Shown: positions 8,300 to 61,632 of the stretch, piece after piece
How positions within the stretch are numbered: the stretch's first letter is position 1
Layout: each line of letters opens with the position of its first letter
Position numbers and translations under genes: made by a program
Origin: Planctomycetaceae bacterium
Lineage (GTDB): Bacteria; Planctomycetota; Planctomycetia; Pirellulales; UBA1268
Reading direction: 5' to 3'
Length of the DNA: 64,000 nucleotides
Assembly (NCBI GenBank): GCA_947459185.1
Contig: CANHCU010000001.1
Span: forward strand, 14,463 to 78,462
The notes under the pieces: model-generated
Told to the model about the DNA's origin: nothing
Seen by the model: the letters and a program-made list of their open reading frames with translations, nothing else
Database searches by the model: none

Positions 8300-8435
8300 A
8301 TTCCCTTGCTTGCGCTGCGGGCTTGGATGAATGATCCCGGTTCCATGCAAGCCCGAAGCGCAAGCGAGAGGAAACCGCGACCTGTTGCCGTGAGGCCACC
8401 CGCGATTCCCTTGCTCGCGCTGCGGGCTTGGATGG
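8300..8435. repeat. intergenic palindromic repeat locus A (type1 +, type2 inverted, type1 +)
   Basis: ATTCCCTTGCTTGCGCTGCGGGCTTGGATG at 8300-8329, CCATGCAAGCCCGAAGCGCAAGCGAGAGGAA at 8343-8373 and ATTCCCTTGCTCGCGCTGCGGGCTTGGATGG at 8405-8435. The locus lies between the convergent gmd and lnt genes. Confidence 0.9.
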
Positions 8436-8445
8436 GGACGGGCTT

Positions 8446-10056
8446 CTATGGGACGGGTGTCCCGCGTGCTGTCTTGAGACGTCGCCGCACGCTTGCGAGG
8501 GCGATGGCGATCGCCAGCCCGCCGCAGACGACCGGAAAGGCTTGGCCGATCCGGCTGGCCAGCGTGCGGGTGTTGATCAGGGGCACCTCGGCGACGAGCA
8601 CGTCCTCCACATGGAGCGGCAGCCGCGCGGGGATGGTGCCCAGCGGCGAGACGACGCAGGTCTCGCCCGTTGCCGCGCACCGCAGCAGGCAGCGGCGGTT
8701 TTCCACGGCCCGCAACTGCGCGAGCAGGCGGTGCTGGAGGAGCGTAAGGGTCGCCTTGAACGACGAGCCATTGATCAGCGAGAGCAGCACATTGGCCCCA
8801 TTGTCGGCAAGCGATTCGGCGGCGCTTGGCACCATGTCTTCGTAGCAGAGCATCACGCCCAGCTTTGCCTTGTCGCCAAGCGCCAGCACGGTCGCCGCCG
8901 GACCGACATCGAGGTCGTCGTCCATCGGAAAGTAGTGCCGCAGTTCGGGCATGAACGCAGTGCCCGGGACATATTCGCCAAACGGCATCAGATGCCGCTT
9001 GTGGTAGCAGCCGATGATCTGCTCGGCATCGTCAACGAGGATCGCGGACTGGTAGAGGTCGTTGGGCCGTTCGGGATAGCCGCTGTAGATCTTGCCGCCA
9101 AACAGGAGCGGACAGGCAGGATCGGCCAGCGGCCGCAAGCCCCGCTGCGGTTCCCGCGACTCCGCAAAGATCCGCTCGGGATCGTTGAAGGCGGGGAGCT
9201 TTTCCGAGTAGGAGCCGCCGCTACATTCCGGCCAGCAGATCAGGTCGAAGGGCCTGTCGCGGCCGGCGCATGCCTCCCTCGAGAAACGCTGGAGGTCGTC
9301 GATCGAATCGTCACGGCTGGGATCGACCTGCACGAGCGCCACGCTGAGCTTCGGCGCCGCGGCCATCTGGGCCGACCAGAACTGCATCGCCCATGCGCCG
9401 TAGGCGAGGTTGGCCAGGCAGACCACGACCGCGGCCACGCCCGCTGCCGTCCAGGCCGGGCCGACCGCCGCGTGCCCGCGACGCCAACGGCGGAGCATCT
9501 CCACCACCAGCACGATCACGCCGGCATGGGCATAGAGCACGAAGGTGGCAGCCTCCGGGCCGAGTAGATCGACCGATTGCACGAGCACGGGCCAGGCGAT
9601 CTGGCTGTAGCCGAGTTTCCAGGGAAAGACGCTCGTGACGAAGGCCTCGGTCGCGACGGCGACGAGTGCCGCCGGGAGCCAGGCATTGCGAGGATCGGCG
9701 ACCGTGCGACTGACAAACCAAAAGGGCAGCGACAGCCGCAGGGCATCCCAGAGCACGATCGGCACGGTGAAGGCCAGGCCGATCCCGTAGCTCGACTGGA
9801 TCGCGTCGGCGAGCACGGTGGGTGACCAGTGAAACGCCGTGGCCAGGCTCGTCGCCGCCACGGCCAGCACGAGCGTTTCGCCCCGCCAGCCGCGGAGCGC
9901 GGGGAGACAGACAAGCGCAGCCGCCACACCCAGCCATTCACAGGGCACGAGGTCCTGCCAGAGCCACGGGGTCGCGATCAGCATCGCGATCACCGCCGCC
10001 CCCAGGGCATCCGCCCACCAGGCGGTCTCCGCTCGTTGCCGCTCGAAAACATTCAT
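8446..10056 (-). CDS. lnt: apolipoprotein N-acyltransferase
   Basis: A polytopic N-terminal membrane domain is followed by a CN-hydrolase domain with the E/K/C triad context (ICWPE, HKRHLMPFGEY, VMLCYED). Confidence 0.9.
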   Translation of the reverse strand: MNVFERQRAETAWWADALGAAVIAMLIATPWLWQDLVPCEWLGVAAALVCLPALRGWRGETLVLAVAATSLATAFHWSPTVLADAIQSSYGIGLAFTVPIVLWDALRLSLPFWFVSRTVADPRNAWLPAALVAVATEAFVTSVFPWKLGYSQIAWPVLVQSVDLLGPEAATFVLYAHAGVIVLVVEMLRRWRRGHAAVGPAWTAAGVAAVVVCLANLAYGAWAMQFWSAQMAAAPKLSVALVQVDPSRDDSIDDLQRFSREACAGRDRPFDLICWPECSGGSYSEKLPAFNDPERIFAESREPQRGLRPLADPACPLLFGGKIYSGYPERPNDLYQSAILVDDAEQIIGCYHKRHLMPFGEYVPGTAFMPELRHYFPMDDDLDVGPAATVLALGDKAKLGVMLCYEDMVPSAAESLADNGANVLLSLINGSSFKATLTLLQHRLLAQLRAVENRRCLLRCAATGETCVVSPLGTIPARLPLHVEDVLVAEVPLINTRTLASRIGQAFPVVCGGLAIAIALASVRRRLKTARGTPVP

Positions 10057-10146
10057 ACACCGGTTCTAATCACGAACCCGGGCCCGCACAAACCGCAGGT
10101 CGGCCGGACGTCCGTGTCGTTCCGTCTGGCATGGGACGGGGGCCGC

Positions 10147-10206
10147 AAAAACGAGCGAGCCGGACGGCACTGGCGGGACAAGGCCCACGCACGTGCTGTC
10201 CGGCTC
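10147..10206 (-). terminator. candidate intrinsic terminator downstream of the 10258..10644 gene
   Basis: 14-bp inverted repeat GAGCCGGACGGCAC (10157-10170) / GTGCTGTCCGGCTC (10193-10206) with one mismatch. On the minus strand a TTTTT run follows 5 nt later (10147-10151). The 22-nt loop is large, so this is tentative. Confidence 0.35.
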
Positions 10207-10257
10207 GTGATCTCGTCTGTTTTCAGGCCAGCATTCGGATGGAGGTCCGGACGACGA

Positions 10258-10644
10258 CTAGAAAATCTTCCCCGGGGGGGAGAAGGTCAGAGTCGACGTC
10301 GTCGCGTCGGCCGCAGCCAACAGGTAGACGTACTGGCTCTTCGGGAAGTTGAAGTCCAGCGTCTGCGACACGGCAGCAGTCTGATCCTGAACGAAGGCCT
10401 GGGCAGCCCCCTTCTTGATCGTGAACTGGGCCACGCCGTTGCCAGACACCGTCTTACCGCCCGCTGCCGTCGTAGCCGCACCATTCTTCGCATTCACGAG
10501 CGCCGGCGCGGTGCCGGTGTTCTTGATGCGAACGTACTGGTTGTTCGACTTCGAGCTACCGCCGCTCCGGCCGCCCGCAAACGCGGCGCTGGCCGAAACC
10601 ACCATGGCGACGACCGCCAGGGTGAGGAAAGAACTACGAATCAT
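10258..10644 (-). CDS. small secreted protein, function unknown
   Basis: Signal peptide MIRSSFLTLAVVAMVVSASAAFAGG. ATG 10644 is preferred over 10668 because an AAAGG sits upstream. The gene lies just downstream of the DUF1559 gene on the same strand. Confidence 0.55.
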   Translation of the reverse strand: MIRSSFLTLAVVAMVVSASAAFAGGRSGGSSKSNNQYVRIKNTGTAPALVNAKNGAATTAAGGKTVSGNGVAQFTIKKGAAQAFVQDQTAAVSQTLDFNFPKSQYVYLLAAADATTSTLTFSPPGKIF

Positions 10645-10780
10645 AGGAACCTTTCTTCGAAGAAACATTCACGTGATCACGATCGTGCTGGGCTCAGCAC
10701 GACCGACTACGGGTTGCCCCGCAATGTTGGTGGGCCGGGTCGCCCCGGCGGGTGTATTGGTGTGGGCGTGCCGTGAACTC

Positions 10781-11647
10781 TTAGTTGGCGGTCTCGGTCT
10801 CGGTCTCTCCGCCGGTGCGGGTGCAGATGGCAATCAGCACGCGAACATCGAGCCGGTCGCTGAGGAATGAAATGTGGCCGTCGCCATAGAGGCTGTTGAG
10901 CCCGCCGACGTGGTGACTCCGGAAGGCATCGACGCTTGGGTCGTTGATGACGCGGGAATTGAGCGGGAAGCAGTTGTAGCCGGCGGCCCAACAGGCGTCA
11001 CCGTCCGTGAGCGTGTCGGCACCGCCGGCCATCTCGCGATCGACTGCCTCGGCGACCAGCAGCGTCTTGGAAAGCCCGTCCGAGACCGACGCCGCGGTTG
11101 CCGACAGTTTGTATTCATGATCGGTCGCATAGAGGATCCCGCCGTGTTCATCGCGGGTGGTGAGCGGAACGATCGCCTCGCCGTTGGGCTTGATATAGGC
11201 GCCAAGAATGCCGCCGTAATCCTGCTTGCCGGGGAACTGCTTCACGCCGCTGGGGCAGACATAGGTCGGGATCGTGATGTCCACCTTGGACAGATTGCTG
11301 GCGGGATCATTCCAGGGCTTCGTGTAGTCAATGCGATCCGACACCGCCGACTGTTCCAGGAACGGCAGGATGAACGACGACCAGGCATGCCGGCGCTTGA
11401 TCTGATTGACTCCAAGCGGAAGTTGTTCGTCTCCAGGCGGGAACCGTTTCTTGGCCTGCTCGTAGTTGGTCAGCGCCACGCCCATCTGCTTGAGATTGTT
11501 GGCGCACTGCATCTTGCGGCCCGACTCGCGGGACCGCTGCACGGCTGGCAGCAGCAGGCCAATCAGCGTCCCGATAATGGCGAGTACCGCGAGCAGTTCG
11601 ACGAGTGTAAAGCCACTCGGTGTGAGGCGTTGGGCGGTGGTTTTCAT
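10781..11647 (-). CDS. DUF1559 domain protein with prepilin-type N-terminal cleavage/methylation motif
   Basis: GFTLVELLAVLAIIGTLIGLLLPAVQ is a type IV pilin-like N-terminus. The C-terminal H-x9-DG (HVGGLNSLYGDG) is the hallmark of the planctomycetal DUF1559 family. Confidence 0.9.
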   Translation of the reverse strand: MKTTAQRLTPSGFTLVELLAVLAIIGTLIGLLLPAVQRSRESGRKMQCANNLKQMGVALTNYEQAKKRFPPGDEQLPLGVNQIKRRHAWSSFILPFLEQSAVSDRIDYTKPWNDPASNLSKVDITIPTYVCPSGVKQFPGKQDYGGILGAYIKPNGEAIVPLTTRDEHGGILYATDHEYKLSATAASVSDGLSKTLLVAEAVDREMAGGADTLTDGDACWAAGYNCFPLNSRVINDPSVDAFRSHHVGGLNSLYGDGHISFLSDRLDVRVLIAICTRTGGETETETAN

Positions 11648-11874
11648 GGCTACATTTCTCGGGGCGGAAACGCCTCTGTTAAGATGCGTAGGATACGACG
11701 GCTATTGGGGGGGTCAAGCTCGCGGAACGGATTTCTCGTAAAACACGATGTTTAGCAGATTTTCATTTTGGCGAGGAGGCGAGCAAAATGCCCATCTGTC
11801 GAATCTAAGCTACGTGTCACCAATGACTTACGTACAGCATGAATGCCTTGAGCGGGCCCCAAGGCAAGGTCAGA

Positions 11875-12660
11875 TCAGATGATCCTGAAGCTGGTTGCGG
11901 CACCGGCAGCGAGCGGGTTGCCGGCCCGGTCCACAACGCCTGGCCTCACGAACGACAGGGTATAGGTTCCGGGCTCTGCGAGCGTGAGTTGTTCCTGGAA
12001 CGTAAATGTCCTTCCGTCAGGGGACTGGGACATTGTGATCAACCCGACGTAGGGCCGGGCACGCACGTCGTTGATGGCCACGTTGGGTATTGTGACTCCA
12101 GACTGCGTCCGGCCGGAAAGGATCAGGTTGGACGCCCGCACCCCTGACACGGGCTCGGAGAATGTCACTGTCGCGCGGCCATTGACCGAGTCGTAGGTCA
12201 GGCTCGCCGTGGGCGGAGTGGGATCGACGGCCATCCACATGGGAGTCGCCGTGCTCCAGACGCTCCCGGCACCGACCGCATACGCTGTCATTGTGTGGGC
12301 ACCGGTTGTGAGTTGCCGGGCTGCGGGCGTCGCCAGGCTCCAGGCCCCACGCACCGTGGCCGTGGTGATGCCGAGCAGCTGCCCATCGGCATAGACGACC
12401 ACGCTCGAACGAGGGGAGGCCGTGCCGGTAAACACAGGCCTTGCGAGTCGTGTGATGCCGTCACCCAAGACACCGGTATCGCTCGCTGCCGCCAGCCTGA
12501 TGGATGGCGCCGCCACCGTCAGCGCCATCCGCTGTTCGAGCGACTCAAGGCCCATCGTCGCTTCTCGGCTCCTCAGCCCGGCGGCGGCCCGATGTCGCCG
12601 AGCAGGCCTCGTGGCGGCGACACATGTGCGGACGATGGACTGCAGGAGAGACAACGGCAT
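11875..12660 (-). CDS. extracellular Ig-like domain protein
   Basis: The Arg-rich N-terminus ends in LESLEQRMALTV, followed by two beta-rich segments of Big/Ig-like character (TGTASPRSSVVVYADGQLLG...; TVTFSEPVSGV). Confidence 0.6.
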   Translation of the reverse strand: MPLSLLQSIVRTCVAATRPARRHRAAAGLRSREATMGLESLEQRMALTVAAPSIRLAAASDTGVLGDGITRLARPVFTGTASPRSSVVVYADGQLLGITTATVRGAWSLATPAARQLTTGAHTMTAYAVGAGSVWSTATPMWMAVDPTPPTASLTYDSVNGRATVTFSEPVSGVRASNLILSGRTQSGVTIPNVAINDVRARPYVGLITMSQSPDGRTFTFQEQLTLAEPGTYTLSFVRPGVVDRAGNPLAAGAATSFRII

Positions 12661-13072
12661 AGGGCACCTCAGGAATAGAAACGAGGTCGAGAACGGACTG
12701 GCTGCGAATATGGGTGGTCTGCGTGAACGGCGGAACCGATCCTACGGCAGACACCACCCCAAAGTTTGAGGTAGCAGCCATTTTCAACCGGGACAGGCCC
12801 AAGTCAAGGAACAGGCCACCCGATATTCCGGGGCAAAAAGCCCTGAAAAGCAGTTCTTTGTCGCAAGCGGGCCGTGCCGGTTTCCCTCCGGACACGTCGG
12901 GTGAATTGCTTCCAGCGACACGGTTTCGTCGGCAAATGGCTGTTTTTTCGCTGTGTTTGCAGGCAAAAGTGGCGAACGTATGATCGCCCTGCGGCATTTT
13001 CAGCGGCGATTCCCCCTCAAGCGATTCCCTTGATCTGGCGGCTTCCGGCCCGGATTTGGAACGGACACATTC

Positions 13073-14047
13073 ATGAACGTCCTCGTCACCGGCGGCGCCG
13101 GATTCATTGGCAGCCACATTGTCGATGGGCTCGTGGCGGCCGGACATCGCGTCGAGGTGCTCGACGACCTCTCCACCGGCTCGCGGGATAACCTGCCCGC
13201 TGGCGTGCCGCTGCATGTCGCCGACATCGTCGATCCGGCGGCCGTGGCCCGCGTGTTCGATGCGGCACGGCCCCATGCGGTCTGCCATCAGGCGGCGCAG
13301 ATGTCGGTCAGCCGGTCGGTCCGCGATCCGCTCTTCGACGCCCAGGTCAACTGCATCGGCCTGATCAACGTGCTCGAGGCTGCGGCTAGGCATCACTGCC
13401 GGCGGGTTGTCTTCGCTTCAAGCGGTGGCGTCCTCTATGGAGAGGTGACGGCGCCGGCACCCGAATCGACGCCTGCCAATCCGGTCAGCCCCTACGGCAT
13501 CACCAAGTGGGTGGGGGAGCGGTATCTGAAGTTCTTTGCCGAAGAGCACCGGATGGCGACGGTGGCCCTCCGCTATTCCAATGTCTACGGTCCGCGGCAG
13601 AACCCGCACGGCGAGGCGGGGGTGGTGGCGATCTTCTGCAAGAAGCTTCTGGCGGGCGAACCGGCCCGCGTCAACGGCGACGGCCATTACATCCGCGACT
13701 ATGTCTTCGGCCCTGACGTGGCCCGGGCCAACGTGCTGGCCCTGACGGCCGACCTGCCCACCGTGGTGCCGGGCACGCTCACGAGCCTCAACATTGGCAC
13801 CGGCCTCGGAGCCGACGTCAATGACCTCGAGGCGATGATTCGCACCGCTGTCGGCGACGCCCTCAGCCGTCGTGGTCGGCGGGTGACGCTGCCGCTTCCG
13901 GAGCACGGGCCGGCCCGACCCGGTGACCTGCGGACGAATCTCGTCGATGCGACCTCTGCCGGCGATCTGCTCGGCTGGAAGCCGACAGTCGGGCTCGCCG
14001 ATGGGCTAGCCCTGACGGCGGAGTGGTTCGCGGCCCAGACTGCCTAG
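13073..14047 (+). CDS. NAD-dependent epimerase/dehydratase (UDP-glucose 4-epimerase-like)
   Basis: MNVLVTGGAGFIGSHIVDGL Rossmann motif, YGITK catalytic region and the YSNVYGPRQ motif of extended SDRs. Confidence 0.85.
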   Translation: MNVLVTGGAGFIGSHIVDGLVAAGHRVEVLDDLSTGSRDNLPAGVPLHVADIVDPAAVARVFDAARPHAVCHQAAQMSVSRSVRDPLFDAQVNCIGLINVLEAAARHHCRRVVFASSGGVLYGEVTAPAPESTPANPVSPYGITKWVGERYLKFFAEEHRMATVALRYSNVYGPRQNPHGEAGVVAIFCKKLLAGEPARVNGDGHYIRDYVFGPDVARANVLALTADLPTVVPGTLTSLNIGTGLGADVNDLEAMIRTAVGDALSRRGRRVTLPLPEHGPARPGDLRTNLVDATSAGDLLGWKPTVGLADGLALTAEWFAAQTA

Positions 14048-14081
14048 TCGGCATGCACGGCAACTGGTCGTTGGGCAGTGG

Positions 14082-15128
14082 TCACTCGTTCGTCAGACCG
14101 TCCAACGCCCCGGTCGCCATCCGCTGACGGAGTGACGGCGACTCTATGTAGGGCGGAAAGCGATGGCTCTTGCCGACGATCGGCGCGGCATCGACCTGGA
14201 CGAACTCGATTCCCGGCGGAATCCAACGCGAGGGCATGTGCTCGTGCCCGAGGGCTTCGGCTCCCAGAGCAGGGTCGATGAATTCGAAGAATCGCAGGGC
14301 CTGATCCCGCGTGTTGTTCAAGAGCGTCAGCCGATTGACGCTACGCAGCACTTTCCGGTATTCGCCGCACGGCGCCAAAGCGTCTTGTTGCACCGCCGAC
14401 GCTACGAGCACGAGGTGCAGTCTCGCAGAGCGGTCGAGCCACGGCTGCAGGTTTGCGCGGCCCGACTGCTCGGCAGTGATGAGGTTGTCGAGAGCCTCCA
14501 GGGCGATCAGGCCACCGTAGCTGTAGGCCACGATTGCCACGGGCCGATCGGGCTCCACCTGACCGAGCAGCCACGCCAGGTAGTGCCCTTCCGTCATCGA
14601 TCGCTCGTATTTGGCACGACTGTCCCGCAGCAGGTGGCCCTCACGGGAACTCGGCCACGAGAAGATCACGGTGCGGGCGGCAGAAGCGTCGGGATGGCAG
14701 GCCGCCAGCCGGCGGGCCACGAGCAGCCCCTGCGACTTTGCGTCGGCCGACTCGTAGCGGTTGCCGTGGATGAAGACCACGAGCGGCCGCTGCGGTTCGT
14801 TAAGCAGGCTCGGCAGGTCAGAGGGCATCCAGCGGCTGCACGCCGCATCGCGAACGAGTCGCTCCACGCCGAATGTCACATTCGCTGGCGTGCGGCTGAT
14901 GTCGGGAAGACGTCGCGTGCTGACGACCCAGACGTCGTCGCCACCGCCCGCCGGGTTGTCTGCCGCGACGGGAACGTCGGCCGATGGAGACGCCTCGACC
15001 CTCATGCCGCAGCAGCACACGAAAACGACCGCCGTCAGGGCCAGGCATGGTTTGAATGCAGCGAAAAGACGCACGACAGCTACCGAATGTATGGAAGGCC
15101 AGCCCGAGCCGCGACGCGGCCTATTCAT
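14082..15128 (-). CDS. alpha/beta hydrolase (DUF900-like), membrane-anchored or secreted
   Basis: VVFIHGNRYESADAKSQG plus the nucleophile-elbow-like IVAYSYGG. The N-terminus has a hydrophobic segment. Confidence 0.6.
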   Translation of the reverse strand: MNRPRRGSGWPSIHSVAVVRLFAAFKPCLALTAVVFVCCCGMRVEASPSADVPVAADNPAGGGDDVWVVSTRRLPDISRTPANVTFGVERLVRDAACSRWMPSDLPSLLNEPQRPLVVFIHGNRYESADAKSQGLLVARRLAACHPDASAARTVIFSWPSSREGHLLRDSRAKYERSMTEGHYLAWLLGQVEPDRPVAIVAYSYGGLIALEALDNLITAEQSGRANLQPWLDRSARLHLVLVASAVQQDALAPCGEYRKVLRSVNRLTLLNNTRDQALRFFEFIDPALGAEALGHEHMPSRWIPPGIEFVQVDAAPIVGKSHRFPPYIESPSLRQRMATGALDGLTNE

Positions 15129-15419
15129 CGACTGTTCCCAACAATAGCACGTATTTTACGGCAGCGACCGCTGCCGAATCGCATGGCCGAATCGCACGGC
15201 CGACGGGCCGGGCCATCCAGCGCATTCGCTACGGCCGTATGCCATCGGCAGGGTCGGCGGAAAGGGCCGCGGCCGGCCGAGAAATTTTTTGGAGAAAGTG
15301 AGCCGCCGATCCGACCGAGCAGCGGATCGTGAGCTAGGTTTTGGCAGGCGTCGTCGCGGACGACGCATCGTGTCCGACTGCGGGGCTTCCTCGGCCCGGC
15401 GGTGGTGGAGATCCCAATC

Positions 15420-15719
15420 ATGTCCCGTACCCTGTGCCTCGTGATTGCCCTGGGCAGCCTCGCAGCCGCTCCGGGCTGCAGCAGTTGTTTTGGCGGTGCG
15501 AACAGCTGCCGTCGCCCGTCGTTCATGGAGTTCCGCTCGCCGTGTGCGGGAGGTGCCGCGCCCTGTGCGGCCCCGCAAGCTCAGCCCTGCCAGCCCGCCT
15601 GCGGGGCGCCGATGCAAGAGCCGGCATGTGGGCCAGCATGCGGCTCGTGCGGCGAAGGCGGGGGCATGATGTCGCCGTCGTCGTCGCCGGTCATGGTCGA
15701 GCCGGGGACATTTAGCTGA
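15420..15719 (+). CDS. small Cys/Pro/Met-rich lipoprotein
   Basis: Signal plus lipobox MSRTLCLVIALGSLAAAPGC, then 10 further Cys in PC/AC dipeptide contexts and a GGGMMSPSSSPVMVEPG tail. GGTGGAG lies upstream of the ATG. Confidence 0.5.
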   Translation: MSRTLCLVIALGSLAAAPGCSSCFGGANSCRRPSFMEFRSPCAGGAAPCAAPQAQPCQPACGAPMQEPACGPACGSCGEGGGMMSPSSSPVMVEPGTFS

Positions 15720-15922
15720 TCGATGACGGGGCGGTTCGGCCGCCCCTCCGGTGATGCGCCGCTCTTGCCGGCCAAGCGTCGGGCAAGCAGCACGCAGTGT
15801 GCCTGCTCCCGATTCGAGCGGCTCGTCACCGGCGGGGCGGTCGGCTCGGCACCACAGGTGCCGGCGCCCCCGTATTCCCGCGATTTCCATGATTACGCTG
15901 CGGGCGTCGATGGGCGGCATTC

Positions 15923-16012
15923 TCATGCAAGCCCGACGCGCGAGCGAGGGAATCCGCGTCACTTCCTCGTAACGCCCCGGCATTCCCTTGCTTGCGCTGC
16001 GGGCTTGGATGG
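15923..16012. repeat. intergenic palindromic repeat locus B (type2 inverted, type1 +)
   Basis: TCATGCAAGCCCGACGCGCGAGCGAGGGAAT at 15923-15953 and ATTCCCTTGCTTGCGCTGCGGGCTTGGATGG at 15982-16012, upstream of ffh. Confidence 0.9.
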
Positions 16013-16076
16013 AACCGGAAAAACGCTTCCGCCCCCGGTATACTCTCGGCTCACGTTTTCCCTTCACGGAGCCGCC

Positions 16077-17543
16077 ATGTTTGAGTCGCTGACCGCCTCG
16101 CTCTCCTCCGCCTTGAACACCCTGCGGGGCCGCGGCAAGCTCACCGAAGCGAACATGCGCGAGGGGCTCTCGGGGGTCCGGACGGCACTTTTGGAAGCGG
16201 ACGTCGCCTATGACGTCGTCGAGACATTTCTGTCGCGAGTGGTTGACGATGCGGTTGGGGCCAAGGTGCTCGAGTCACTCGATCCGGCCCAGCAGCTCGT
16301 CGGCATCGTGCACCAGGAACTGGTCAATCTGATGGGACCGGTGGACCACTCGCTCCACCTCCAGCCGGGCAAGACCACCATCCTGATGCTCTGCGGTCTA
16401 CAGGGCTCGGGCAAGACGACCTCCTGCGGCAAGCTGGCGAAGCGGATCAAGGAGCAGGGGCGGGGCGTGATGCTCGTCGCTGCCGACCTTCAGCGTCCGG
16501 CGGCCATCGAGCAGTTGGCGGTGCTGGGCCGGCAGATCGGCGTGCCGGTGCACGTGCCGGACGGGGTCACCGATCCGGTGGCTGTCTGCCGCGCTGGCGT
16601 GGATCGTGCGGAGAAAGAAGGCATCTCCGTTGTCATCCTCGACACGGCCGGCCGCCTCTCGATCGACGAGGCCCTGATGCAGGAACTCACGAAAATCGAC
16701 CGCACCGTGGGCCCCGACCAGGTCTACCTCGTGGTCGATGCCATGACCGGGCAGGATGCCGTGAAAAGCGCCAAGGCCTTTAACGAAGCGCTCGAACTCG
16801 ACGGCGTCATCATGACGAAGCTCGACGGCGACGCCCGCGGCGGAGCCGCCTTGTCGGTGAAGACCGTGACAGGGGTGCCGATCAAGTTTGTCGGCACCGG
16901 CGAGCAGATCGACGCCCTGGAGGATTTTCACGCCGAGCGGATGGCGGGGCGGATTCTCGGCATGGGTGACGTCGTCACGCTCGTCGAAGAAGCGCAGCGG
17001 AAGTTTGACCAGGACGAGATGAAGCGGCAGGAGGAACGGCTCCGCGCGGGTGAATTCACGCTCGACGACTTCAAGAAGGTGCTCATGCAGACCCGCCGCC
17101 TGGGCCCACTGGGCAAGGTGCTCGGCATGATCCCCGGTATGGGCGGCATGCAGGAGATGCTCGCAGGCAACGACCTCGACAAGGACGTCAATCGTCTCTT
17201 CGGCATCATCGATGCGATGACGCCTGCCGAGCGGCGGAACCCATCGCGCGTGGTCGATCAGTCGCGCCGCCGCCGCATCGCCGTAGGGGCGGGCGTCGAT
17301 CCGCGAGAGGTGAGCGATCTGGTCAAGCAGTTTGATGGCATGAGCGCGATGATGAAGGGCATGGCTGGGCTGGGCATGCGAGACCGTCTGCGTGAGGTGC
17401 AGCGGCTGCAGACGCAGTTGACCAATCCCGCCGGGCGGCTCGGCAGGCCGAAGGGTGACACGGGTAAGCGGCTCACCGCCGATGAACGCCGCAAGCAGAA
17501 GAAGCAGCGCGAGAAGGACGCCCGCCGCAAAAAGCGAGGGTAG
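16077..17543 (+). CDS. ffh: signal recognition particle protein Ffh
   Basis: [28 protein letters not shown]-domain, [10 protein letters not shown]1 motif, DTAGR motif and a Met-rich M domain. The upstream in-frame extension (15723-16076) reads through repeat units and is rejected. Confidence 0.95.
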
Positions 17544-17553
17544 GTCGCTCCCT

Positions 17554-17585
17554 CCCATGCAAGCCTGAAGCGCGAGCGAGGGAAT
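17554..17585. repeat. intergenic repeat locus C (single type2 unit, inverted)
   Basis: CCCATGCAAGCCTGAAGCGCGAGCGAGGGAAT lies 11 nt after the ffh stop. Confidence 0.85.
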
Positions 17586-17831
17586 CGGTATTCGGGCAGC
17601 CGGGATCGGCGGAAGCTCGAGGAGCTTTTGGATTTTTCGCCCTGATCGGGAAAGCACGACCAACGCCCTTGATGGCGAAAAAGCCACCGCGACGAGACTT
17701 CTGCCGATCCCGGCGGCGTCGATTCCCGCAAAAACACCGGAAAAACCGGGGTCTGCAAGGTGGGCTTGGGTTCCGGCGCCGGTCGGGTACGCTAAGGGGC
17801 TCGATCAATCATTTCCGAGGAGACTCTGACC

Positions 17832-18320
17832 GTGGCTGTGGCGATTCGAATGAAGCGGATGGGCCGGAAGAACCGTGCCTTCTACAGAATCTGTGCGACC
17901 GACCGGCGGAGCCCGCGAGACGGCCGCGTCATCGAGGTGCTCGGCACCTACGATACGTCCGTTCCCGATACCGATGCCCGCTGTCTGCTCGACAACGACC
18001 GCGTGGCCTACTGGCTGAGCGTTGGCGCCCAGCCGAGCGATGCCGTCCGCGTGCTCGTGAAGAAGTACGGCAAGAACGGCACGCGGCTCAAGGAAATGGA
18101 GCAGGCCCGCGCCAAGCTCTCCATGCCCAGGATTGTGCCCGAAGCCGGTGAGCCGGTGTTTGTGCCCGAGCCCAAGTCGGTGCCGGGTGCGGCCGCTCCG
18201 GTTGCGGAAGCCGCGGCACCTGTCGAAGCTGCCCCCGAATCGATTGCAGATGTCCCGGTGGCCGAAGCGTCCAGCCCCGCTGTCGAAGGTGGTGGGGAAA
18301 CGCAGCCGGAGCAAGCCTGA
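17832..18320 (+). CDS. rpsP: 30S ribosomal protein S16 with Pro/Ala/Glu-rich C-terminal extension
   Basis: GTG start preceded by GAGGAG. (M)AVAIRMKRMGRKNRAFYRICATDRRSPRDGRVIEVLGTYD is the S16 core. About 75 extra low-complexity residues follow. Confidence 0.9.
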   Translation: MAVAIRMKRMGRKNRAFYRICATDRRSPRDGRVIEVLGTYDTSVPDTDARCLLDNDRVAYWLSVGAQPSDAVRVLVKKYGKNGTRLKEMEQARAKLSMPRIVPEAGEPVFVPEPKSVPGAAAPVAEAAAPVEAAPESIADVPVAEASSPAVEGGGETQPEQA

Positions 18321-18398
18321 CCAAGCCGGGCCACGCCATTTGCTGTTCTCTCTCCTGCCGTTGTTTCCCCTGCCGTTTCTGTGGCCTCTGCGATTCTC

Positions 18399-19094
18399 AT
18401 GCGCATCGACATCCTCACCCTGTTTCCCGAGATGTTCACGGGCTTTCTCGACGGAAGCCTGCTCGGTGAGGCGCGCCGTGCGCGGCTGATCGATGTCTGT
18501 CTGACAAACATCCGCGACTTCGCCGAAGGCGTGCATCGGCAGGTGGACGACAGGCCCTATGGCGGTGGTCCTGGCATGCTCCTCATGCCGGGACCGGTGG
18601 TGTCGTGCGTCGAGGCGGTGCAGCAGCAGGCCGATGCCCCTGGCCATCTGGTGATGCTGACGCCCGGCGGAAGGCGGCTCGATCAGGCCGGTGTCGAGGA
18701 ACTCGCCCGCAAGCAGCGCATCGTGCTCGTGTGTGGCCGCTACGAGGGCTTCGACGACCGTGTTCGCGAAACGCTCCAGCCCGATGAGATCTCCATCGGC
18801 GACTATGTGCTCTCCGGCGGCGAGGTGGCGGCGATGGTGATCGTCGACGCAGTCGCCCGCCTGCTGCCTGGCGTGCTGGGCGACGAGGAGAGTGCCCGTC
18901 AGGATTCCTTCTCCGGCGCCGACCGCCTGGTGGAAGGCCCTCAATACACCCGGCCGCGGGAGTTTCGCGGCCTGCGCGTGCCCGACGTGCTGTTGTCGGG
19001 CGACCATGGCCGGATCGCAACGTGGCGGCATGAACAGGCCGTCGATGCGACCCGTCGCCGTGTCCCAGCCAATCTTTCCCCAAACCGTTCCTGA
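18399..19094 (+). CDS. trmD: tRNA (guanine37-N1)-methyltransferase
   Basis: [14 protein letters not shown]-terminus, [11 protein letters not shown] and [11 protein letters not shown] motifs. Confidence 0.9.
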
Positions 19095-19104
19095 AGGAGC
19101 CGTC

Positions 19105-19518
19105 GTGAGTCAGCAAATCCTCGCCAAAGTTGAAGCCTCCAGCCTCAAGTCGGAGGTGCCGCAGTTCGCCATCGGCGATACCGTTGACGTGCACACCCGC
19201 ATCCTCGAAGGCGAGAAGGAACGCGTCCAGATTTTCAATGGCGTGGTCATCGCCAAGAGCGGCTCCGGGAGCCGGGAGACCTTCACCGTCCGGCGCATCG
19301 TGGCGGGCGAGGGCGTCGAGCGGAAGTTCCCTATCCACTCACCCAAGATCGCCAAGGTCGAGGTGAAGCGGTCGGGCGTGTCGCGGCGGGCCAAGCTCTA
19401 TTACCTCCGCGATCGCGTCGGCAAGTCGGTCCGACTCCGCGAGAAGCGTGACGACGTCGCCGCCGCCGAGGCAACGGCGAAGAAGGCGGCCAGCAAGAAG
19501 GCAGCGGCCAAGGCCTGA
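19105..19518 (+). CDS. rplS: 50S ribosomal protein L19
   Basis: GTG start 5 nt after AAGGAG. FAIGDTVDVHTRILEGEKERVQIFNGVVIA...RRAKLYYLRDRVGK is typical L19. Confidence 0.9.
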   Translation: MSQQILAKVEASSLKSEVPQFAIGDTVDVHTRILEGEKERVQIFNGVVIAKSGSGSRETFTVRRIVAGEGVERKFPIHSPKIAKVEVKRSGVSRRAKLYYLRDRVGKSVRLREKRDDVAAAEATAKKAASKKAAAKA

Positions 19519-19536
19519 CGAAGTTCGGCATTCTCC

Positions 19537-19932
19537 GTGTCTTGGGTGGCCATGACATCGCGTGATCCACGGCAGGCGGTCGGGCTCCGTGGCGAGGCCG
19601 AGGCGGAGCAGTTCCTCCGGGGCTTGGGCTACCGGATCGTCGGCCGGCGGGAGCGGGTGCTCCGCGGAGATATCGACCTCGTCGCCCTCGACGGCCGCAC
19701 GGTGGTATTCGTCGAGGTGCGGTCGCGGACCGACACCACCCACGGGCATCCGGCTGAAACCGTCGGCTTTCAGAAGCAGCGGCGGATCGCCGAACTGGCT
19801 ACCGCCTACATCCGCCGGCACCGGCTGGAGGACTGCCAGGTGCGGATCGACGTGGTGACTGTCACGTTCGGCGCCGAGGGGTCACGTCCGGTCGTCGAGC
19901 ATTTTCAAAATGCATTCGACAGCCCCATGTAG
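19537..19932 (+). CDS. yraN: YraN family (UPF0102) endonuclease-like protein
   Basis: GLRGEAEAEQFLRGLGYRIVGRRERVLRGDIDLVALDGRTVVFVEVRSR has the PD-(D/E)xK-like core of UPF0102. Confidence 0.8.
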   Translation: MSWVAMTSRDPRQAVGLRGEAEAEQFLRGLGYRIVGRRERVLRGDIDLVALDGRTVVFVEVRSRTDTTHGHPAETVGFQKQRRIAELATAYIRRHRLEDCQVRIDVVTVTFGAEGSRPVVEHFQNAFDSPM

Positions 19933-19941
19933 CTGGCACTT

Positions 19942-19988
19942 CATCCAAGCCCGCTCTCTATCCAAGCCCGCAGCGCAAGCAAGGGAAT
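19942..19988. repeat. intergenic repeat locus D (type1 unit in reverse orientation plus partial)
   Basis: Partial CATCCAAGCCCGC at 19942-19954 and TATCCAAGCCCGCAGCGCAAGCAAGGGAAT at 19959-19988, between the convergent yraN and AAA ATPase genes. Confidence 0.85.
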
Positions 19989-20020
19989 ACGGATGGCCTG
20001 CACAACCCGTCCCCATTTTC

Positions 20021-21352: not shown

Positions 21353-21444
21353 GCGTGCCTTTTGTGGTGTGGCCGGCTGAATCGAGGACGCCGGCGGTTG
21401 CAGAGGTGTTCGGGATCTGCGTGATCGTGGGGAGCCTGCCGACG

Positions 21445-21774
21445 ATGTCTTGGTTGTACCTGATGATCGCGATCGTGGCCGAAGTGGTTGGCACGAGCTT
21501 TTTGCGGGCCTCGCAGGGGTTCACCAAACCGCTGCCCAGCGTCATGGTGGTGCTCGGCTACGGACTGGCGTTCTTCTTTCTGTCGCTGACGCTCAAGGAC
21601 ATTCCGGTGGGGATCGCCTATGCGGTCTGGAGCGGCGCGGGGGTGACGCTGATCGCCGCAATCGGCTGGCTCTTTCTGGGGCAGAAGCTTGACGCCGCGG
21701 CGATCCTCGGCATGTCGCTGATCATCGCCGGCGTCGTCGTGCTCAACCTGTTTTCGAAGGCTGGCGGTCACTGA
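21445..21774 (+). CDS. small multidrug resistance (SMR/EmrE-type) transporter
   Basis: 109 aa with four TM segments. [23 protein letters not shown] carries the conserved membrane-embedded Glu. [10 protein letters not shown] motif is present. Confidence 0.85.
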
Positions 21775-21808
21775 GACGGCTCGCGCATGATCCGCGATAT
21801 CGTCCCGC

Positions 21809-22010
21809 ATTCCCTTGCTTGCGCTGCGGGCTTGGATGGAGAGCGGGTTCCCATGCAAGCCCGAAGCGCAAGCGAGAGGAATCCGCATGGCATTCCCGTG
21901 AGGCAATCCGCATTCCCTTGCTTGCGCTGCGGGCTTGGATGGAGAGCGGGCTTGGATGAGGACGGGGCTTGGGTGGAGAGCGGGCTTGGATGAGGACGGG
22001 GCTTGGATGG
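21809..22010. repeat. intergenic palindromic repeat locus E (type1 +, type2 inverted, type1 +, then 34-bp x2 tail)
   Basis: Units at 21809-21839, 21851-21882 and 21912-21942. A tandem GGAGAGCGGGCTTGGATGAGGACGGGGCTTGG(G/A)T follows at 21941-21974 and 21975-22008. The locus lies between the convergent SMR and TauE genes. Confidence 0.9.
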
Positions 22011-22026
22011 AGCGCGGGCCGTTCGA

Positions 22027-22794: not shown

Positions 22795-22806
22795 GCGGCT
22801 GCGTGC

Positions 22807-23217: not shown

Positions 23218-23314
23218 GCGGCTGGTTCCGGCGTGATGGGAAAGGGAGCGGGGGCCTGAAGTGGCACAGCCAGTATGATGCCCTCTTTCACTCCGCCCCG
23301 CCATCCACGCTGCC

Positions 23315-23890: not shown

Positions 23891-23945
23891 CCTGAAACAG
23901 TGACATTCTCGAGGAGTATGCGACGCAGCATGTGTTCGCCCCAAA

Positions 23946-24140
23946 ATTTCCCTTTCTTGCGCTGCGGGCTTGGATGAAGAACGATCCCATACAAGCCCGA
24001 AGCGCAAGCGAGAGGAATCCGCGTCGCATTTCTGCAAGGCCACGTTTATCCCCTTTCTTGCGCTGCGGGCTTGGATGAAGAAGGCGGGCATGGATGAGGA
24101 GGGGGCATGGATGCCCGTCTGGTTCCCCATGCAAGCCCTG
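23946..24140. repeat. intergenic palindromic repeat locus F (type1 +, type2 inverted, type1 +, degenerate tail)
   Basis: Units at 23946-23977, 23987-24018 and 24048-24078, GGGCATGGATG iterations at about 24086-24112, and a partial type2 unit at 24125-24140. The locus lies between miaE and the P-type ATPase. Confidence 0.9.
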
Positions 24141-24177
24141 TCCACTGTTCAGTCCGTCCACTCACAGCACCCAACCC

Positions 24178-36682: not shown

Positions 36683-36844
36683 CTGAGGTGGGGGTGGTCT
36701 GTGTCGGTCGGGGCTGCCCATGCCCCGTCGCCGGACGTTCGCTACGGCCATCCATGGCCTTCGCTCACTCGATGCTGACTGCGCTCCGGCATCCTGCCTG
36801 CGCTGGTCAGCAACGCCGGCTCTCGGGGCATGGGCAGCCCCTCG

Positions 36845-36868
36845 CATCCCCTTGCTTGCGCTGCGGGC
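36845..36868. repeat. intergenic repeat locus G (truncated type1 unit)
   Basis: CATCCCCTTGCTTGCGCTGCGGGC lies between the convergent rsmG and the 36983..37474 gene. Confidence 0.7.
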
Positions 36869-40989: not shown

Positions 40990-41016
40990 GACGGCCGACC
41001 TGTATCCCCCGGCTCG

Positions 41017-41242
41017 CGCCGGGGGCTTGTATGGGATGTCATGCGAGCGCGAAGCGTGCGCCGGGGGCTTGTATGGGATGTCGTGCGAGCGCGAAGCGTG
41101 CGCCGGGGGCTTGTATGGGATGTCGTGCGAGCGCGAAGCGTGCGCCGGGGGCTTGCATGGGATGTCGTGCGAGCGCGAAGCGTGCGCCGGTGGTTTGTAT
41201 GGGGTGTGCATGCAAGCCCTGAGCGCGAGCGACGGGATTCCC
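41017..41242. repeat. 42-bp tandem repeat array (4 near-identical copies plus 1 diverged), derived from the interspersed repeat family (locus H)
   Basis: CGCCGGGGGCTTGTATGGGATGTC(A/G)TGCGAGCGCGAAGCGTG at 41017-41058, 41059-41100, 41101-41142 and 41143-41184. A diverged copy ending in a type2-like unit (TGCATGCAAGCCCTGAGCGCGAGCGACGGGATTCC) occupies 41185-41242. Confidence 0.9.
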
Positions 41243-42447: not shown

Positions 42448-42518
42448 ATTCCCTCGCTCGCGCTTCGGGCTTGCATGGGAGCCCAGTTGCATCCAAGCCC
42501 GCAGCGCACGCAAGGGAG
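42448..42518. repeat. intergenic palindromic repeat locus I (type2 +, type1 inverted)
   Basis: ATTCCCTCGCTCGCGCTTCGGGCTTGCATGG at 42448-42478 and CATCCAAGCCCGCAGCGCACGCAAGGGAG at 42490-42518. Confidence 0.9.
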
Positions 42519-56783: not shown

Positions 56784-56856
56784 GTCCCTCGCTTGCGCGT
56801 CGGGCTTGGATGGGAGCTGGGCGGATTCCCTCGCTTGCGCGTCGGGCTTGGATGGG
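56784..56856. repeat. intergenic repeat locus J (two direct type1-variant units, 41-nt period)
   Basis: GTCCCTCGCTTGCGCGTCGGGCTTGGATGGG at 56784-56814 and ATTCCCTCGCTTGCGCGTCGGGCTTGGATGGG at 56825-56856, between the convergent FHA gene and the 56884 gene. Confidence 0.9.
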
Positions 56857-59326: not shown

Positions 59327-59478
59327 GCTTTCCTCCAGGTGGTAACTGATCCAGAATCTCAGGAAGGTTGTAAGATGGGTTTCCTAGTGATTGCAAGCAC
59401 CAACCCGCATCACGCGTGGCTGCGGCACGGCTTCCGGTCGTGCCACCGGCGGCAGCGCCCTGGTCGCGGTCCGGCCGC

Positions 59479-60540
59479 ATGATCGAATTTTTCCCCACCT
59501 ACGCACGGCGTCTTCCCGGTGAAAAGCGGTGGCAGGCCACCGTTGCCGGCATGATCTCCCGTCCGTTGCCCCCGAAGAGCCATCGCCGCAGTCTGGCGGT
59601 TGGGGTGATCAAGCGGCTGCTGGATCTCGATGAAACCCAGCTGCAGTCGGAGGTATTTCAGCGGCGGGCAGACGCTTTCCTGTTTCAGCGGGTGGCGGGC
59701 GAGCGGGTGAGCATCACGCTTGGTGGACGGAGGATCGATGCTGGACAGTCGGACCGGGTTGGACATTTTCAGCATCTGATCGAACTGGATGATGCGGATG
59801 TCGATGCCCTGGCCGAGCTGAGTGGCTCCGCCGGGAAGGGCGGCGGGTGCCGTTGGCTCTCCTACGCCGCGGCGATTGCAGCCGACGACGATGGCGGCGT
59901 CGGTCTGACGGCGTCGGCCGCGGCCGCGACGGGCTCGATCCAAGTGATCGATGAGGATGGCCTGTCGGTGATCTCCGACATCGACGACACTGTGAAGGTG
60001 ACGAACGTCGCCAACCGGAGAGAACTCCTCGCCAACACGCTGCTGCGTGAATTCTCAGCTGTACCTGGCATGGCGGAGATCTACCGTCACTGGCAGGCGT
60101 CGGGCACCGCCTTTCACTACGTGTCAGCGAGTCCGTGGCAGTTGGCCAATTGCCTGGGCGGATTCATGCGCGACGCCGGCCTCCCGGCGGGGTCGATGCA
60201 CCTCAAACTCTTCCGGCTCAAGGATTCCACGCCGCTGGGTCGGCTGCCTTCCCGCAAGCGTTCGAAGCGGCGGAGCGTCGAAAACATCGTCGCTGATTTT
60301 CCCAGACGGAGGTTCCTGCTGGTGGGTGACTCCGGCGAACGCGATCCGGAGGTCTACGCCGAGGTGGCCCGCCGTCATCCCGACCGGGTGGCGGGCGTCG
60401 CCATTCGGCAGGTGGAGGGAAAGCAGTCGGCGGACAAGGTGCGGGCACGGCTCGAGCGGCTTGCCCGGCGGGTTCCCGGCGGCCGCTGGCATGTGTTCAC
60501 CGATCCGGCAGAGCTCGCCGCCATCGAGCCAGGCGGCTGA
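59479..60540 (+). CDS. App1-family (DUF2183) phosphatidate phosphatase-like protein
   Basis: ISDIDDTVKVTNV (DxDxT), HYVSASPWQL and LVGDSGERDPEVY are the HAD-like App1/DUF2183 motifs. Confidence 0.7.
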   Translation: MIEFFPTYARRLPGEKRWQATVAGMISRPLPPKSHRRSLAVGVIKRLLDLDETQLQSEVFQRRADAFLFQRVAGERVSITLGGRRIDAGQSDRVGHFQHLIELDDADVDALAELSGSAGKGGGCRWLSYAAAIAADDDGGVGLTASAAAATGSIQVIDEDGLSVISDIDDTVKVTNVANRRELLANTLLREFSAVPGMAEIYRHWQASGTAFHYVSASPWQLANCLGGFMRDAGLPAGSMHLKLFRLKDSTPLGRLPSRKRSKRRSVENIVADFPRRRFLLVGDSGERDPEVYAEVARRHPDRVAGVAIRQVEGKQSADKVRARLERLARRVPGGRWHVFTDPAELAAIEPGG

Positions 60541-60687
60541 CTGCCTCTGAAAAAGCCGGCCGGGCGGGTGGGAACCAGGGCGGGACATGGCTACGGTTTA
60601 GCCTTGGTCGGCGATGGGACTTCTGCTACGGTCCCCGTCGCCGTGCGCCCGCAGAGGGCCTGCGGAAAACTCAGGGGCTGAACGTCC

Positions 60688-61533
60688 ATGCAGATCGAAG
60701 CCTTGCGTGCCGTGCCGCTGACGACCATCGTGCGGCTGGTTCTGTCGTGGTTTCTGCTAGCTGTCTGCGGGGCGTCGGCAGCGCAGGCCGCCGAGGAACG
60801 CGGGTTTCGCGTGGAGAGCGAGGTCTTCGCCAACAGCGCGGAGGAGCCGATCGCGCGGAGCCTGACGCTGTTTCGCGACGGGATCGCCTGGGACTTTCTC
60901 GAGCCAGCCGCGTCCAAGGAGGGCGGCAAAGCGGCTTGCGAGATCGTGCTTCACGATCCCGCCCGCGAGCGGGTTGTGCTGGTCGATCCGGCACGCAATC
61001 TGAAGACCCAGATCGATTCGATCCGGCTCGAGCGGCTGAGCGTGTCGCTTGCGTCGTGGGCGAGAAAGTCGGACGACCGGCTGGTGCGGTGGGCCGGAGG
61101 CCCCGACTTTGGCGAGGGGATGACGGAGTCAGACGACCGCATCGAACTGGTGGGTCCGCGGGTCCGTTACGCGATCGAGTTCGCTCCACCGCCGACGCCG
61201 GAGGCGGCCGGCCTCTATCGGCGGTTTGCCGACACCGCGATTCTGCTCAAGGCGCTGATACGTCCCGGTGGCCTGCCGCCGTTTCCGCGGTTGGCCATCA
61301 ATCGCCGCGTGGCGGCGGCGGGTGGCATTCCCACCGAGGTGTCACTCGAGATCGACTCGCGGGTGGCGCTCGTCACGGGCCGGGCCGACAGCCTGCGGTG
61401 CGTGCACAAGTTTCATCCCCGACTGCTCGCCGGCGACCTCTCGCGAATCGAAGAGGCGGAGAGCCGTGTGGCAGTGGCCACGCAGGTCGAACTCGCCGAG
61501 TTCGCGGCCGCGCCGGCGGCGGACGTCGAGTAA
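60688..61533 (+). CDS. secreted protein, function unknown
   Basis: Signal-like TTIVRLVLSWFLLAVCGASAAQA. Protein-like composition. I recognise no family. Confidence 0.5.
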   Translation: MQIEALRAVPLTTIVRLVLSWFLLAVCGASAAQAAEERGFRVESEVFANSAEEPIARSLTLFRDGIAWDFLEPAASKEGGKAACEIVLHDPARERVVLVDPARNLKTQIDSIRLERLSVSLASWARKSDDRLVRWAGGPDFGEGMTESDDRIELVGPRVRYAIEFAPPPTPEAAGLYRRFADTAILLKALIRPGGLPPFPRLAINRRVAAAGGIPTEVSLEIDSRVALVTGRADSLRCVHKFHPRLLAGDLSRIEEAESRVAVATQVELAEFAAAPAADVE

Positions 61534-61601
61534 TTCGCCGCCCGAAGCCATCGGGGGATGCGGACGAGGCTTCCGCAGCGAGTGGTGTGATGCCACATTC
61601 G

Positions 61602-61632
61602 ATTCCCTTGCTTGCGCTGCGGGCTTGGATGG
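61602..61632. repeat. intergenic repeat locus K (single type1 unit)
   Basis: ATTCCCTTGCTTGCGCTGCGGGCTTGGATGG lies about 70 nt after the stop of the 60688 gene. Confidence 0.9.

Follow-up and report, generated by a model that had tools for sequence, protein, structure and literature searches.

The 64,000-nt stretch of DNA analysed here (hereafter the window; positions 14,463-78,462 of contig CANHCU010000001.1, assembly GCA_947459185.1) belongs to a Planctomycetaceae bacterium (Pirellulales; UBA1268) and carries about 20 copies of a ~31-nt repeat unit of two main types, type 1 (T1) and type 2 (T2), at 11 loci (A to K). Insertion and loss of the family take place in short spacers near the 3' ends of genes, and it behaves as mobile DNA. 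Its best explanation, to which a probability of roughly 55% is assigned, is that of a non-autonomous mosaic element mobilized in trans, of the kind represented by bacterial interspersed mosaic elements (BIMEs), by REPINs (paired, inverted repetitive extragenic palindromic (REP) sequences) and by terminal inverted repeat (TIR) repeats. According to the proposed mechanism, a protein that acts in trans and recognizes a specific sequence, and whose gene lies elsewhere in the genome, would drive the spread of the family and maintain its sequence. The likeliest candidate could be a domesticated HUH/Y1 tyrosine transposase of the REP-associated (RAYT) or TIR-associated (TIRYT) type, which would act on the imperfect hairpin of the T1-sense strand.

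Species-representative genomes were scanned with the degenerate core GCTYGCGCNNCGGGCTTGSATG, which yielded at least 109 loci in at least 16 Planctomycetota species known as metagenome-assembled genomes (MAGs). Nearly all of these loci lie in Planctomycetota MAGs, most of them labelled Pirellulales or Planctomycetia. The TauE protein, whose gene lies beside locus E, was used as a metagenome query and gave 80 syntenic or homologous loci. The compared loci and contigs are designated by L-numbers (L001, L112 and so on). An nhmmer profile built from the window copies was applied to the window and to the loci of the core scan. Genes were delimited by a gene caller that relies on codon usage and was trained on this DNA; its results agree with Pfam scans.

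The mobile behavior of the family is observed at orthologous sites. Intact repeats are found in 4 of the 80 TauE loci (L111, L112, L115 and L178), all of them among the closest relatives; L116 retains one decayed remnant, and the remaining 75, including all 70 at or below 77% TauE identity, contain no copy. Copies decay in lineages devoid of intact ones, as in L116. Between the convergent stop codons of the TauE and SMR genes, L118 has a spacer of 1 nt and L117 one of 11 nt, whereas the window has ~250 nt of repeats. The same spacer contains one unit in L112 and three units with differing numbers of tail copies in L111 and L115; in L110 (94% TauE identity) it is filled by an unrelated 136-nt element, which is described below, and in L113, L114, L121 and L123 by other small repeats. 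The site of locus D is empty (0 nt) in L112 and harbors a different element in L115, and the spacer of locus F is 87 nt long and free of repeats in L110 and L112 versus 317 nt in the window. The variable occupancy of these spacers marks them as insertion hot spots and implies that the family turns over between genomes that are ~5-10% diverged. Spacers between convergent genes are, in this clade, general landing sites for several element families.

The other small repeats found at these sites in relatives (L113, L114, L121 and L123 downstream of TauE, and L115 at the site orthologous to 19938-19993 of the window) include sequences such as ...GGCGGCACGTTTTCAACTTGCCGAATGCGGCCCCAAGCCCAACAAGAT... 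In L110, a 2.2-kb insertion (1368-3596) between the TauE and DUF2237 genes encodes a DUF1559 protein and a GYF_2 protein; no transposase was detected in it by Pfam. Two candidate cases of recent change were rejected. The apparent strain polymorphism between L195 and L196 is a scaffold gap of Ns. In the Logan contig L203, exactly 101 nt of locus F are gone; a real deletion is doubtful, and assembly collapse is the probable cause, since the missing stretch is bounded by a 32-nt exact T1 repeat in an assembly made with k=31.

The placement of the family with respect to genes corresponds in most points to the original prediction, which was made from the letters of the window. All 11 window loci are intergenic by the gene model, and 6 of the 11 lie between convergent genes. 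In the whole set, 116 of the 120 classifiable clusters (97%) are intergenic; a comparable density of copies inside coding DNA was not seen, since the remaining 4 overlap a predicted gene in DNA that is 84% coding. The clusters occupy 47 convergent, 56 tandem and 13 divergent spacers, the corresponding numbers for all spacers of the same DNA being 99, 334 and 100; clusters are consequently enriched between convergent genes and depleted between divergent ones. In tandem contexts, the median distance past the upstream stop codon is ~40 nt. The prediction that every copy lies 3' of a gene fails at locus B, which is not 3' of any gene because it is situated between divergently transcribed genes, upstream of ffh, and it fails for ~11% of clusters overall. 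No orientation bias with respect to transcription was found in tandem contexts, either for T1 (26 sense, 22 antisense) or for T2 (15 and 15).

Orthologous units that have been retained are strongly constrained: 369 of 380 unit bases (97%) are identical versus 507 of 651 bases (78%) in the rest of the same spacers (p=8e-20). At locus J, a direct doublet is kept in the MAG CAMCQY01 with 53 of 54 unit bases identical versus 41 of 58 spacer bases. This doublet is constrained even though it is unable to form a hairpin; therefore the constraint or homogenization acts on the sequence of the unit and not only on its pairing.

Such conservation could also be expected of a host cis-element selected in place, that is, a terminator or messenger protector in the 3' untranslated region (3' UTR) or a site for a nucleoid or topology protein, the spread of which would be incidental. 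Gyrase and IHF bind the BIMEs of E. coli. Positions near stop codons, enrichment between convergent genes, hairpins that are very stable in either orientation, the 97% versus 78% identity at orthologous sites and the occurrence of a ~24-nt core in more distant genomes of 52-59% G+C are all compatible with this explanation. It is nevertheless unlikely, since near relatives have empty sites or unrelated elements in the same spacers, single units that do not fold and direct doublets are conserved equally, 13 clusters occupy divergent promoter regions, and the missing orientation bias speaks against a strand-specific RNA signal. Furthermore, no hairpin of the family is followed by a T-run. Within 7500-25000, no intrinsic terminator (hairpin plus T-run) was called at the repeat loci, and the sole nearby call (17610-17630) is a terminator-like site just downstream of the repeat of locus C, which places that unit inside the 3' UTR. 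Some copies probably do act as protectors of messenger 3' ends as well, since a dimer within a 3' UTR gives an RNA hairpin of ~-50 kcal/mol; this would be a side effect and not the reason for the existence of the family.

The copies themselves are real. All 21 copies of the original prediction were recovered by the profile within 1 nt, giving about 20 units at 11 loci, a density of ~0.3 units per kb (about 20 units per 64 kb), and about one in five of the intergenic spacers of the window is occupied. With up to three mismatches allowed, the consensus matches 10 sites for type 1 and 3 sites for type 2, and none in either case after dinucleotide-preserving shuffling. The profile placed the units at 8300+, 8343-, 8405+, 15920-, 15982+, 17555-, 19958-, 21809+, 21851-, 21912+, 23947+, 23987-, 24048+, 24121- (weak and partial), 36843+ (partial), 41209- (E=2.6e-4), 42448+, 42488-, 56785+, 56825+ and 61602+.

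The building block of ~31 nt contains a core of ~24 nt (CTYGCTYGCGCNNCGGGCTTGNATG), which occurs with different flanks in the few more distant genomes mentioned above. T1 has the form ...TG...GGATG and T2 the forms ...TT/GT...GCATG. The profile found at least 273 copies in the window and the core-scan loci. Although the distinction between two main types holds, it is a simplification, since five variants exist at the diagnostic sites: TG..G (T1, 93 copies), TT..C (45), GT..C (27), TT..G (19) and GT..G (12). The copies form 145 clusters, which comprise 50 singles, 35 tail-to-tail dimers (+-), 30 head-to-head dimers (-+), 12 trimers (+-+) and a few longer arrays. In the original prediction, neighbors of different types are inverted relative to each other; in the whole set, inverted neighbors differ in type in 57 of 62 pairs (5 being of the same type), where 47% would be expected to differ (p=1e-13). 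Direct neighbors are of the same type. The tail-to-tail linker is ~12 nt long (mostly 11-13 nt, GGAAC...), and the head-to-head linker, of about 22-30 nt, contains CCGTGAGGC, the core-to-core distance across the junction being mostly 44-47 nt. A composite T1-linker-T2-linker with a period of ~102 nt results, which occurs whole, reiterated or as dimers and singles and which accounts for trimers and for tandem arrays such as L001.

This architecture could also be read as that of a classical miniature inverted-repeat transposable element (MITE). T1 and T2 would then be the left and right TIRs of a deleted insertion sequence (IS) of the DDE type, and a dimer of about 75-100 bp would be moved by its transposase. 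Inverted T1/T2 pairs do enclose conserved internal linkers, and L002 has recurrent head-to-head dimers that are 88-94% identical across about 91-100 nt; copying of the dimer as a whole would automatically account for the constant mismatches described below. A third of the clusters are single, however, and neither direct tandems nor reiterated half-units are explained by a transposon that moves from TIR to TIR. Neither a parental IS nor a DDE transposase turned up in the window or in the 1.65 Mb of repeat-rich DNA searched. The longest substring shared by left and right flanks was no longer than in permuted flanks, whether for singles, dimers or trimers, a result that leaves room for target-site duplications of 3 bp or less, such as one of 2 bp. 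A MITE origin is accordingly considered improbable.

The folding properties of the family depend on the combination of units. Single consensus units of T1 and T2 fold no better than shuffled sequences (-2.3 and -1.8 kcal/mol, z=+0.7), so the lone unit is not a palindrome, unlike a REP, which by itself is an imperfect palindrome of 20-40 bp. The designation of the family as REP-like is for this reason not supported at the level of the unit, which also has no GTAG or CGTC tag: no more than 2 of 218 copies have GTAG or CTAC within 12 nt of either end, and no more than 6 have CGTC there. The family does share with REPs a high copy number and a position outside genes. Adjacent T1(+) and T2(-) units form the predicted stem of ~30 bp, which is interrupted by two internal mismatches and a single bulge (-37 kcal/mol, z=-8.6). 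The mismatches (the same G.A and G.G on the better-folding strand) are constant, but the bulge is not general; it is found only in the CCTCTC sub-variant, which predominates among the T2 units of the window and is a minority overall, and most T2 units elsewhere give a T.G wobble instead. The hairpin of the T1-sense strand is ~5 kcal/mol more stable than that of the complementary strand, the G.T wobbles being on the T1-sense strand. The conserved mismatches are explained equally well by descent from a dimeric master copy and by selection against perfect palindromes.

Several results weigh against mobilization by a RAYT-type enzyme. As had been predicted, there is no transposase in the window: none of its ~54 predicted proteins has a transposase or recombinase domain in Pfam. 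In the searches for transposases and open reading frames (ORFs), a total of 1.65 Mb was examined, in which no single genome is covered beyond a few per cent. Neither the ORFs with repeats on their flanks nor the multi-copy ORF clusters yielded a transposase; like the window genes and the 2.2-kb insertion of L110, they gave only ordinary planctomycete and housekeeping Pfam families. A phmmer search of 11,802 six-frame ORFs with E. coli RayT gave nothing below E=0.6, and the scan of 1.65 Mb for the HUH...Y(x)NP motif gave 0 matches. The unit lacks the small stem-loop and the GTAG tag that RAYTs are known to recognize. Covariation in the hairpin is nearly nil (3 of 23 pairs, one sequence each, in 27 aligned dimers); since the arms hardly vary, compensatory change neither supports nor refutes the structure. 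Local GC skew, a weak proxy for the replication strand, does not correlate with unit orientation (Fisher p=1.0 and 0.76); this counts against the proposed mechanism because one based on lagging-strand single-stranded DNA might give a strand bias. Finally, gene conversion among copies could explain the constancy of sequence without a binding protein.

In addition, no transposase was found in 10-kb extensions on both sides of the window, or between or beside the repeats in the 1.65 Mb, where no parental IS with matching TIRs was detected either. RAYT genes are usually single-copy. Considering this and the small fraction of each genome that was covered, the absence of a RAYT is a weak negative.

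An unusual array is located in L002 (a contig of MAG CAYSPN01, 61% G+C) at 1485-4804. It consists of five head-to-head T1/T2 dimers in the same orientation, spaced by 0.55-1.0 kb and separating small low-GC ORFs of weak coding potential and mixed orientation, one of which has a weak match to DUF4258 (E=3e-4, below the Pfam threshold). Among the matches listed, which cover 109 loci, it is the sole cassette-like array.

This array invites comparison with attC sites, the imperfect palindromes with constant unpaired bases that serve as folded-strand substrates for a tyrosine recombinase shuffling gene cassettes. The dimers are likewise imperfect palindromes of 75-100 nt with fixed mismatches, one strand of which folds better, and the five dimers of L002 share one orientation between small ORFs. 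It is, however, very improbable that the repeats are attC-like sites. The core sites of attC are RYYYAAC/GTTRRRY with conserved AAC/GTT, whereas the outer motifs of the dimers are ATCCAAG/CTTGGAT and have no AAC/GTT. Moreover, the window repeats flank housekeeping genes (the neighbors being ffh, rpsP, trmD, miaE and clpP) in mixed orientation, no integrase is encoded in the window, and L002 stands alone among the loci listed, its ORFs being of mixed orientation.

In a broader sense, the non-palindromic units, with their strict pairing of different types, might constitute a recognition structure for an unknown recombinase or nucleoid protein that acts on folded single strands, with no RAYT involved. 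The constant G.A and G.G mismatches of the T1/T2 pairing can be compared with the extrahelical bases of attC in this connection. This possibility, which is drawn by analogy, seems quite doubtful. If it were true, the family would represent a mechanistically new class of hairpin-dependent mobile or structural elements in Planctomycetota, and the cassette-like array of L002 could be one of its products. A new biological question arises only if the mobilizing protein proves not to be a RAYT.

Three of the window loci (A, E and F) contain trimers. Locus A (8296..8457, plus strand) comprises T1(+) 8300-8330, T2(-) 8343-8374 and T1(+) 8405-8435, with the head-to-head linker at 8375-8404 and reiterated tails at 8423-8457; it lies between the convergent genes of GDP-mannose dehydratase and Lnt. 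Locus E (21809..22019, plus strand), situated between the convergent SMR and TauE genes, is composed of T1(+) 21809-21839, T2(-) 21851-21882 and T1(+) 21912-21942, and its tails form a 17/34-nt array at 21929-22019. Locus F (23947..24138, plus strand) lies between miaE and a P-type ATPase gene; T1(+) 23947-23977, T2(-) 23987-24018 and T1(+) 24048-24078 are accompanied by reiterated tails at 24065-24113 and by an incomplete T2(-) at 24121-24138. In these three loci the 3' tail of the unit (GGGCTTGGATG) is repeated in tandem, at 8423-8457, 21929-22019 and 24065-24113, respectively.

Locus B (15887..16017, plus strand) consists of a decayed T1(+) at 15887-15913, a T2(-) of the GT..C type at 15920-15958 and T1(+) at 15982-16012, and lies between divergent genes, 59 nt ahead of the start of ffh. 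The gap of 1 kb between a DUF900 hydrolase gene and ffh (15075-16076) has weak coding potential; public gene calls place there an ORF of 275-303 aa without a Pfam match, the 5' end of which would cross the repeats at 15920-16017. Locus C (17555..17585, minus strand) is a lone T2-like unit 7 nt past the ffh stop, followed by the terminator-like hairpin at 17610-17630. Locus D (19938..19988, minus strand) contains a lone T1(-) at 19958-19988 with one extra tail copy at 19938-19954 and has convergent genes on either side. Locus G (36843..36868, plus strand) is a truncated T1(+) that abuts a copy of the unrelated 136-nt structured repeat at 36707-36844.

At locus H (41016..41240, no strand assigned), also between convergent genes, a 42-bp tandem repeat (41016-41207; 4.6 copies, 96% matches) precedes T2(-) at 41209-41240; each 42-bp unit has a T2-like tail, GGGGCTTGTATGG, related to the 3' tail of the repeat unit. 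Locus I (42448..42517, no strand assigned) is a tail-to-tail dimer of T2(+) 42448-42478 and T1(-) 42488-42517 between two minus-strand genes, downstream of AIM24. Locus J (56785..56855, plus strand), with convergent genes on either side, is the direct doublet, of the GT..G variant, at 56785-56816 and 56825-56855. Locus K (61602..61632, plus strand) is a lone T1(+) 66 nt past the stop codon of the upstream gene. The genes flanking the window repeats include those of housekeeping functions, namely GDP-mannose dehydratase, lnt, ffh, rpsP, trmD, miaE, rsmG, clpP, tig, panB and others. Beyond locus K, the spacer between csrA (61922-62161) and the next gene contains a separate 14-nt tandem repeat (TGTATCGCCCAAGT; 62311-62360, 3.6 copies, 97% matches).

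The 136-nt element of the window (36707-36844) belongs to a second family, whose members are bounded by inverted repeats of 17 bp (GGGGCTGCCCATGCCCC...GGGGCATGGGCAGCCCC). There are 42 copies of the element in the DNA examined, including distant relatives without T1/T2, and it is found at L058, L090, L010, L003, L076, L071, L081, L089, L106, L132, L150, L180, L140, L147, L122 and other loci. RNAalifold gives it 45 pairs, 13 of which show compensatory changes, from only 10 sequences. It has no match in Rfam, and its copies show no preferred orientation with respect to genes (8 sense, 6 antisense). Two of the hairpin loops on its minus strand have the sequence AGGAU. The linker motif CCGTGAGGC (21890-21905 and 8385-8397) resembles the sequence next to the terminal repeat of this element on its right side (consensus ...GGGCAGCCCCTCACGG; on the opposite strand, CCGTGAGGGGCTGCCC). 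The likeness may reflect a shared target or cleavage motif, or it may be a coincidence. GGA motifs are present both in the T1 tail and in loops of the 136-nt element, which had suggested decoys for CsrA, whose gene lies at 61922-62161; this idea was rejected, since neither element is oriented preferentially with respect to transcription.

The host clade is one of uncultured freshwater Pirellulales. Matches to the window at 99.5-100% identity occur among the contigs of several ENA, JGI and Logan assemblies, and the nearest genome among the matches listed is the MAG CAMCQY01 (95% identity across 8 kb). CAMCQY01 is one of the MAGs titled Kuenenia, together with CAYSPN01 and CAZOMJ01 (loci L001, L004, L102 and others), which carry DUF1559-type planctomycete genes and have at most 95% identity to the window; three loci bear the label 'Candidatus Kuenenia' yet have ~66% G+C. 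The G+C content of Kuenenia is much lower than that. The label looks wrong in view of the G+C content, the DUF1559-type genes, the level of identity to the window and the Pirellulales labels of the other matches.

Filled and empty orthologous sites document a dense BIME-like family in this clade, and a building block other than a classical REP extends the range of sequences able to form such mosaics. In the search for the enzyme responsible in Planctomycetota, the family offers a concrete target. There are also practical consequences. Short-read assemblies of these organisms are broken by the repeats: metagenome contigs tend to start or stop there (cases involve L200, L203-L207 and L110), as does JGI Ga0620610_0000025, which starts at ~36828 of the window, and five contigs end at locus E (21977-22024). 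The repeats could also serve as strain markers in time-series metagenomes of lakes.

The sequence of the family appears to be new, while elements of this kind are well known. In the Rfam scan of the window, only tRNA-Gly passed the gathering threshold, and a permissive scan of the composite gave only miRNA-like hairpins, far below threshold; there were 0 matches in viral contigs and none in a plasmid collection. No prior description of the family was found in the literature searched. In this respect the original prediction stands. REP and Y1-transposase systems were, however, reported in the planctomycete Rhodopirellula baltica, which is rich in such genes and flanking repeats (PMC3733652). 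The phylum is therefore not unexplored.

Among known systems, small MITEs such as Correia/NEMIS of Neisseria and ERIC are similar in size (about 75-150 bp), in their long TIRs, in being intergenic and co-transcribed and in their presence or absence at orthologous sites. The family differs from them by its many single half-elements and direct tandems, and neither a target-site duplication nor a parental IS was detected here. A close precedent is provided by Y1-type systems. REP families and non-REP 'TIR repeats', which occur as singles, dimers and groups, have been linked to RAYT-like Y1 tyrosine transposases, by which TIR repeats were proposed to be mobilized (PMC3733652). The TIR repeats and TIRtrons with TIRYT (Di Nocera et al. 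2013, PMC3733652) resemble the present family in being non-REP inverted repeats of moderate abundance that form singles, dimers and groups. Membership among TIR repeats is, unlike here, set by repeats flanking a TIRYT gene, none of which was found, and the GGGGWSAS motif of some TIRs is absent from the T1 and T2 units.

With the REPINs and RAYT of Pseudomonas fluorescens the family shares inverted units, a short spacer and a long imperfect hairpin as the apparent unit of propagation, as well as confinement to a clade, decay where intact copies are gone and no transposase inside the element. Each half of a REPIN is a REP palindrome, whereas the halves here are not palindromic and are systematically of different types, and no RAYT was found. 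From the BIMEs of E. coli and other enterobacteria, which are built of Y and Z REP units (palindromic units, PU) that bind gyrase, IHF or Pol I, the family is distinguished by non-palindromic units without a stem-loop of their own or a GTAG tag and by the tandem reiteration of the tail half-unit; as had been predicted, it has no sequence similarity to enterobacterial REPs. The organization, on the other hand, is that of BIMEs, and this part of the prediction is borne out. Two types alternate, joined by distinct conserved head-to-head and tail-to-tail linkers, in singles, pairs, trimers and longer tandem mosaics, which are intergenic, biased towards the 3' ends of genes and present at high density.

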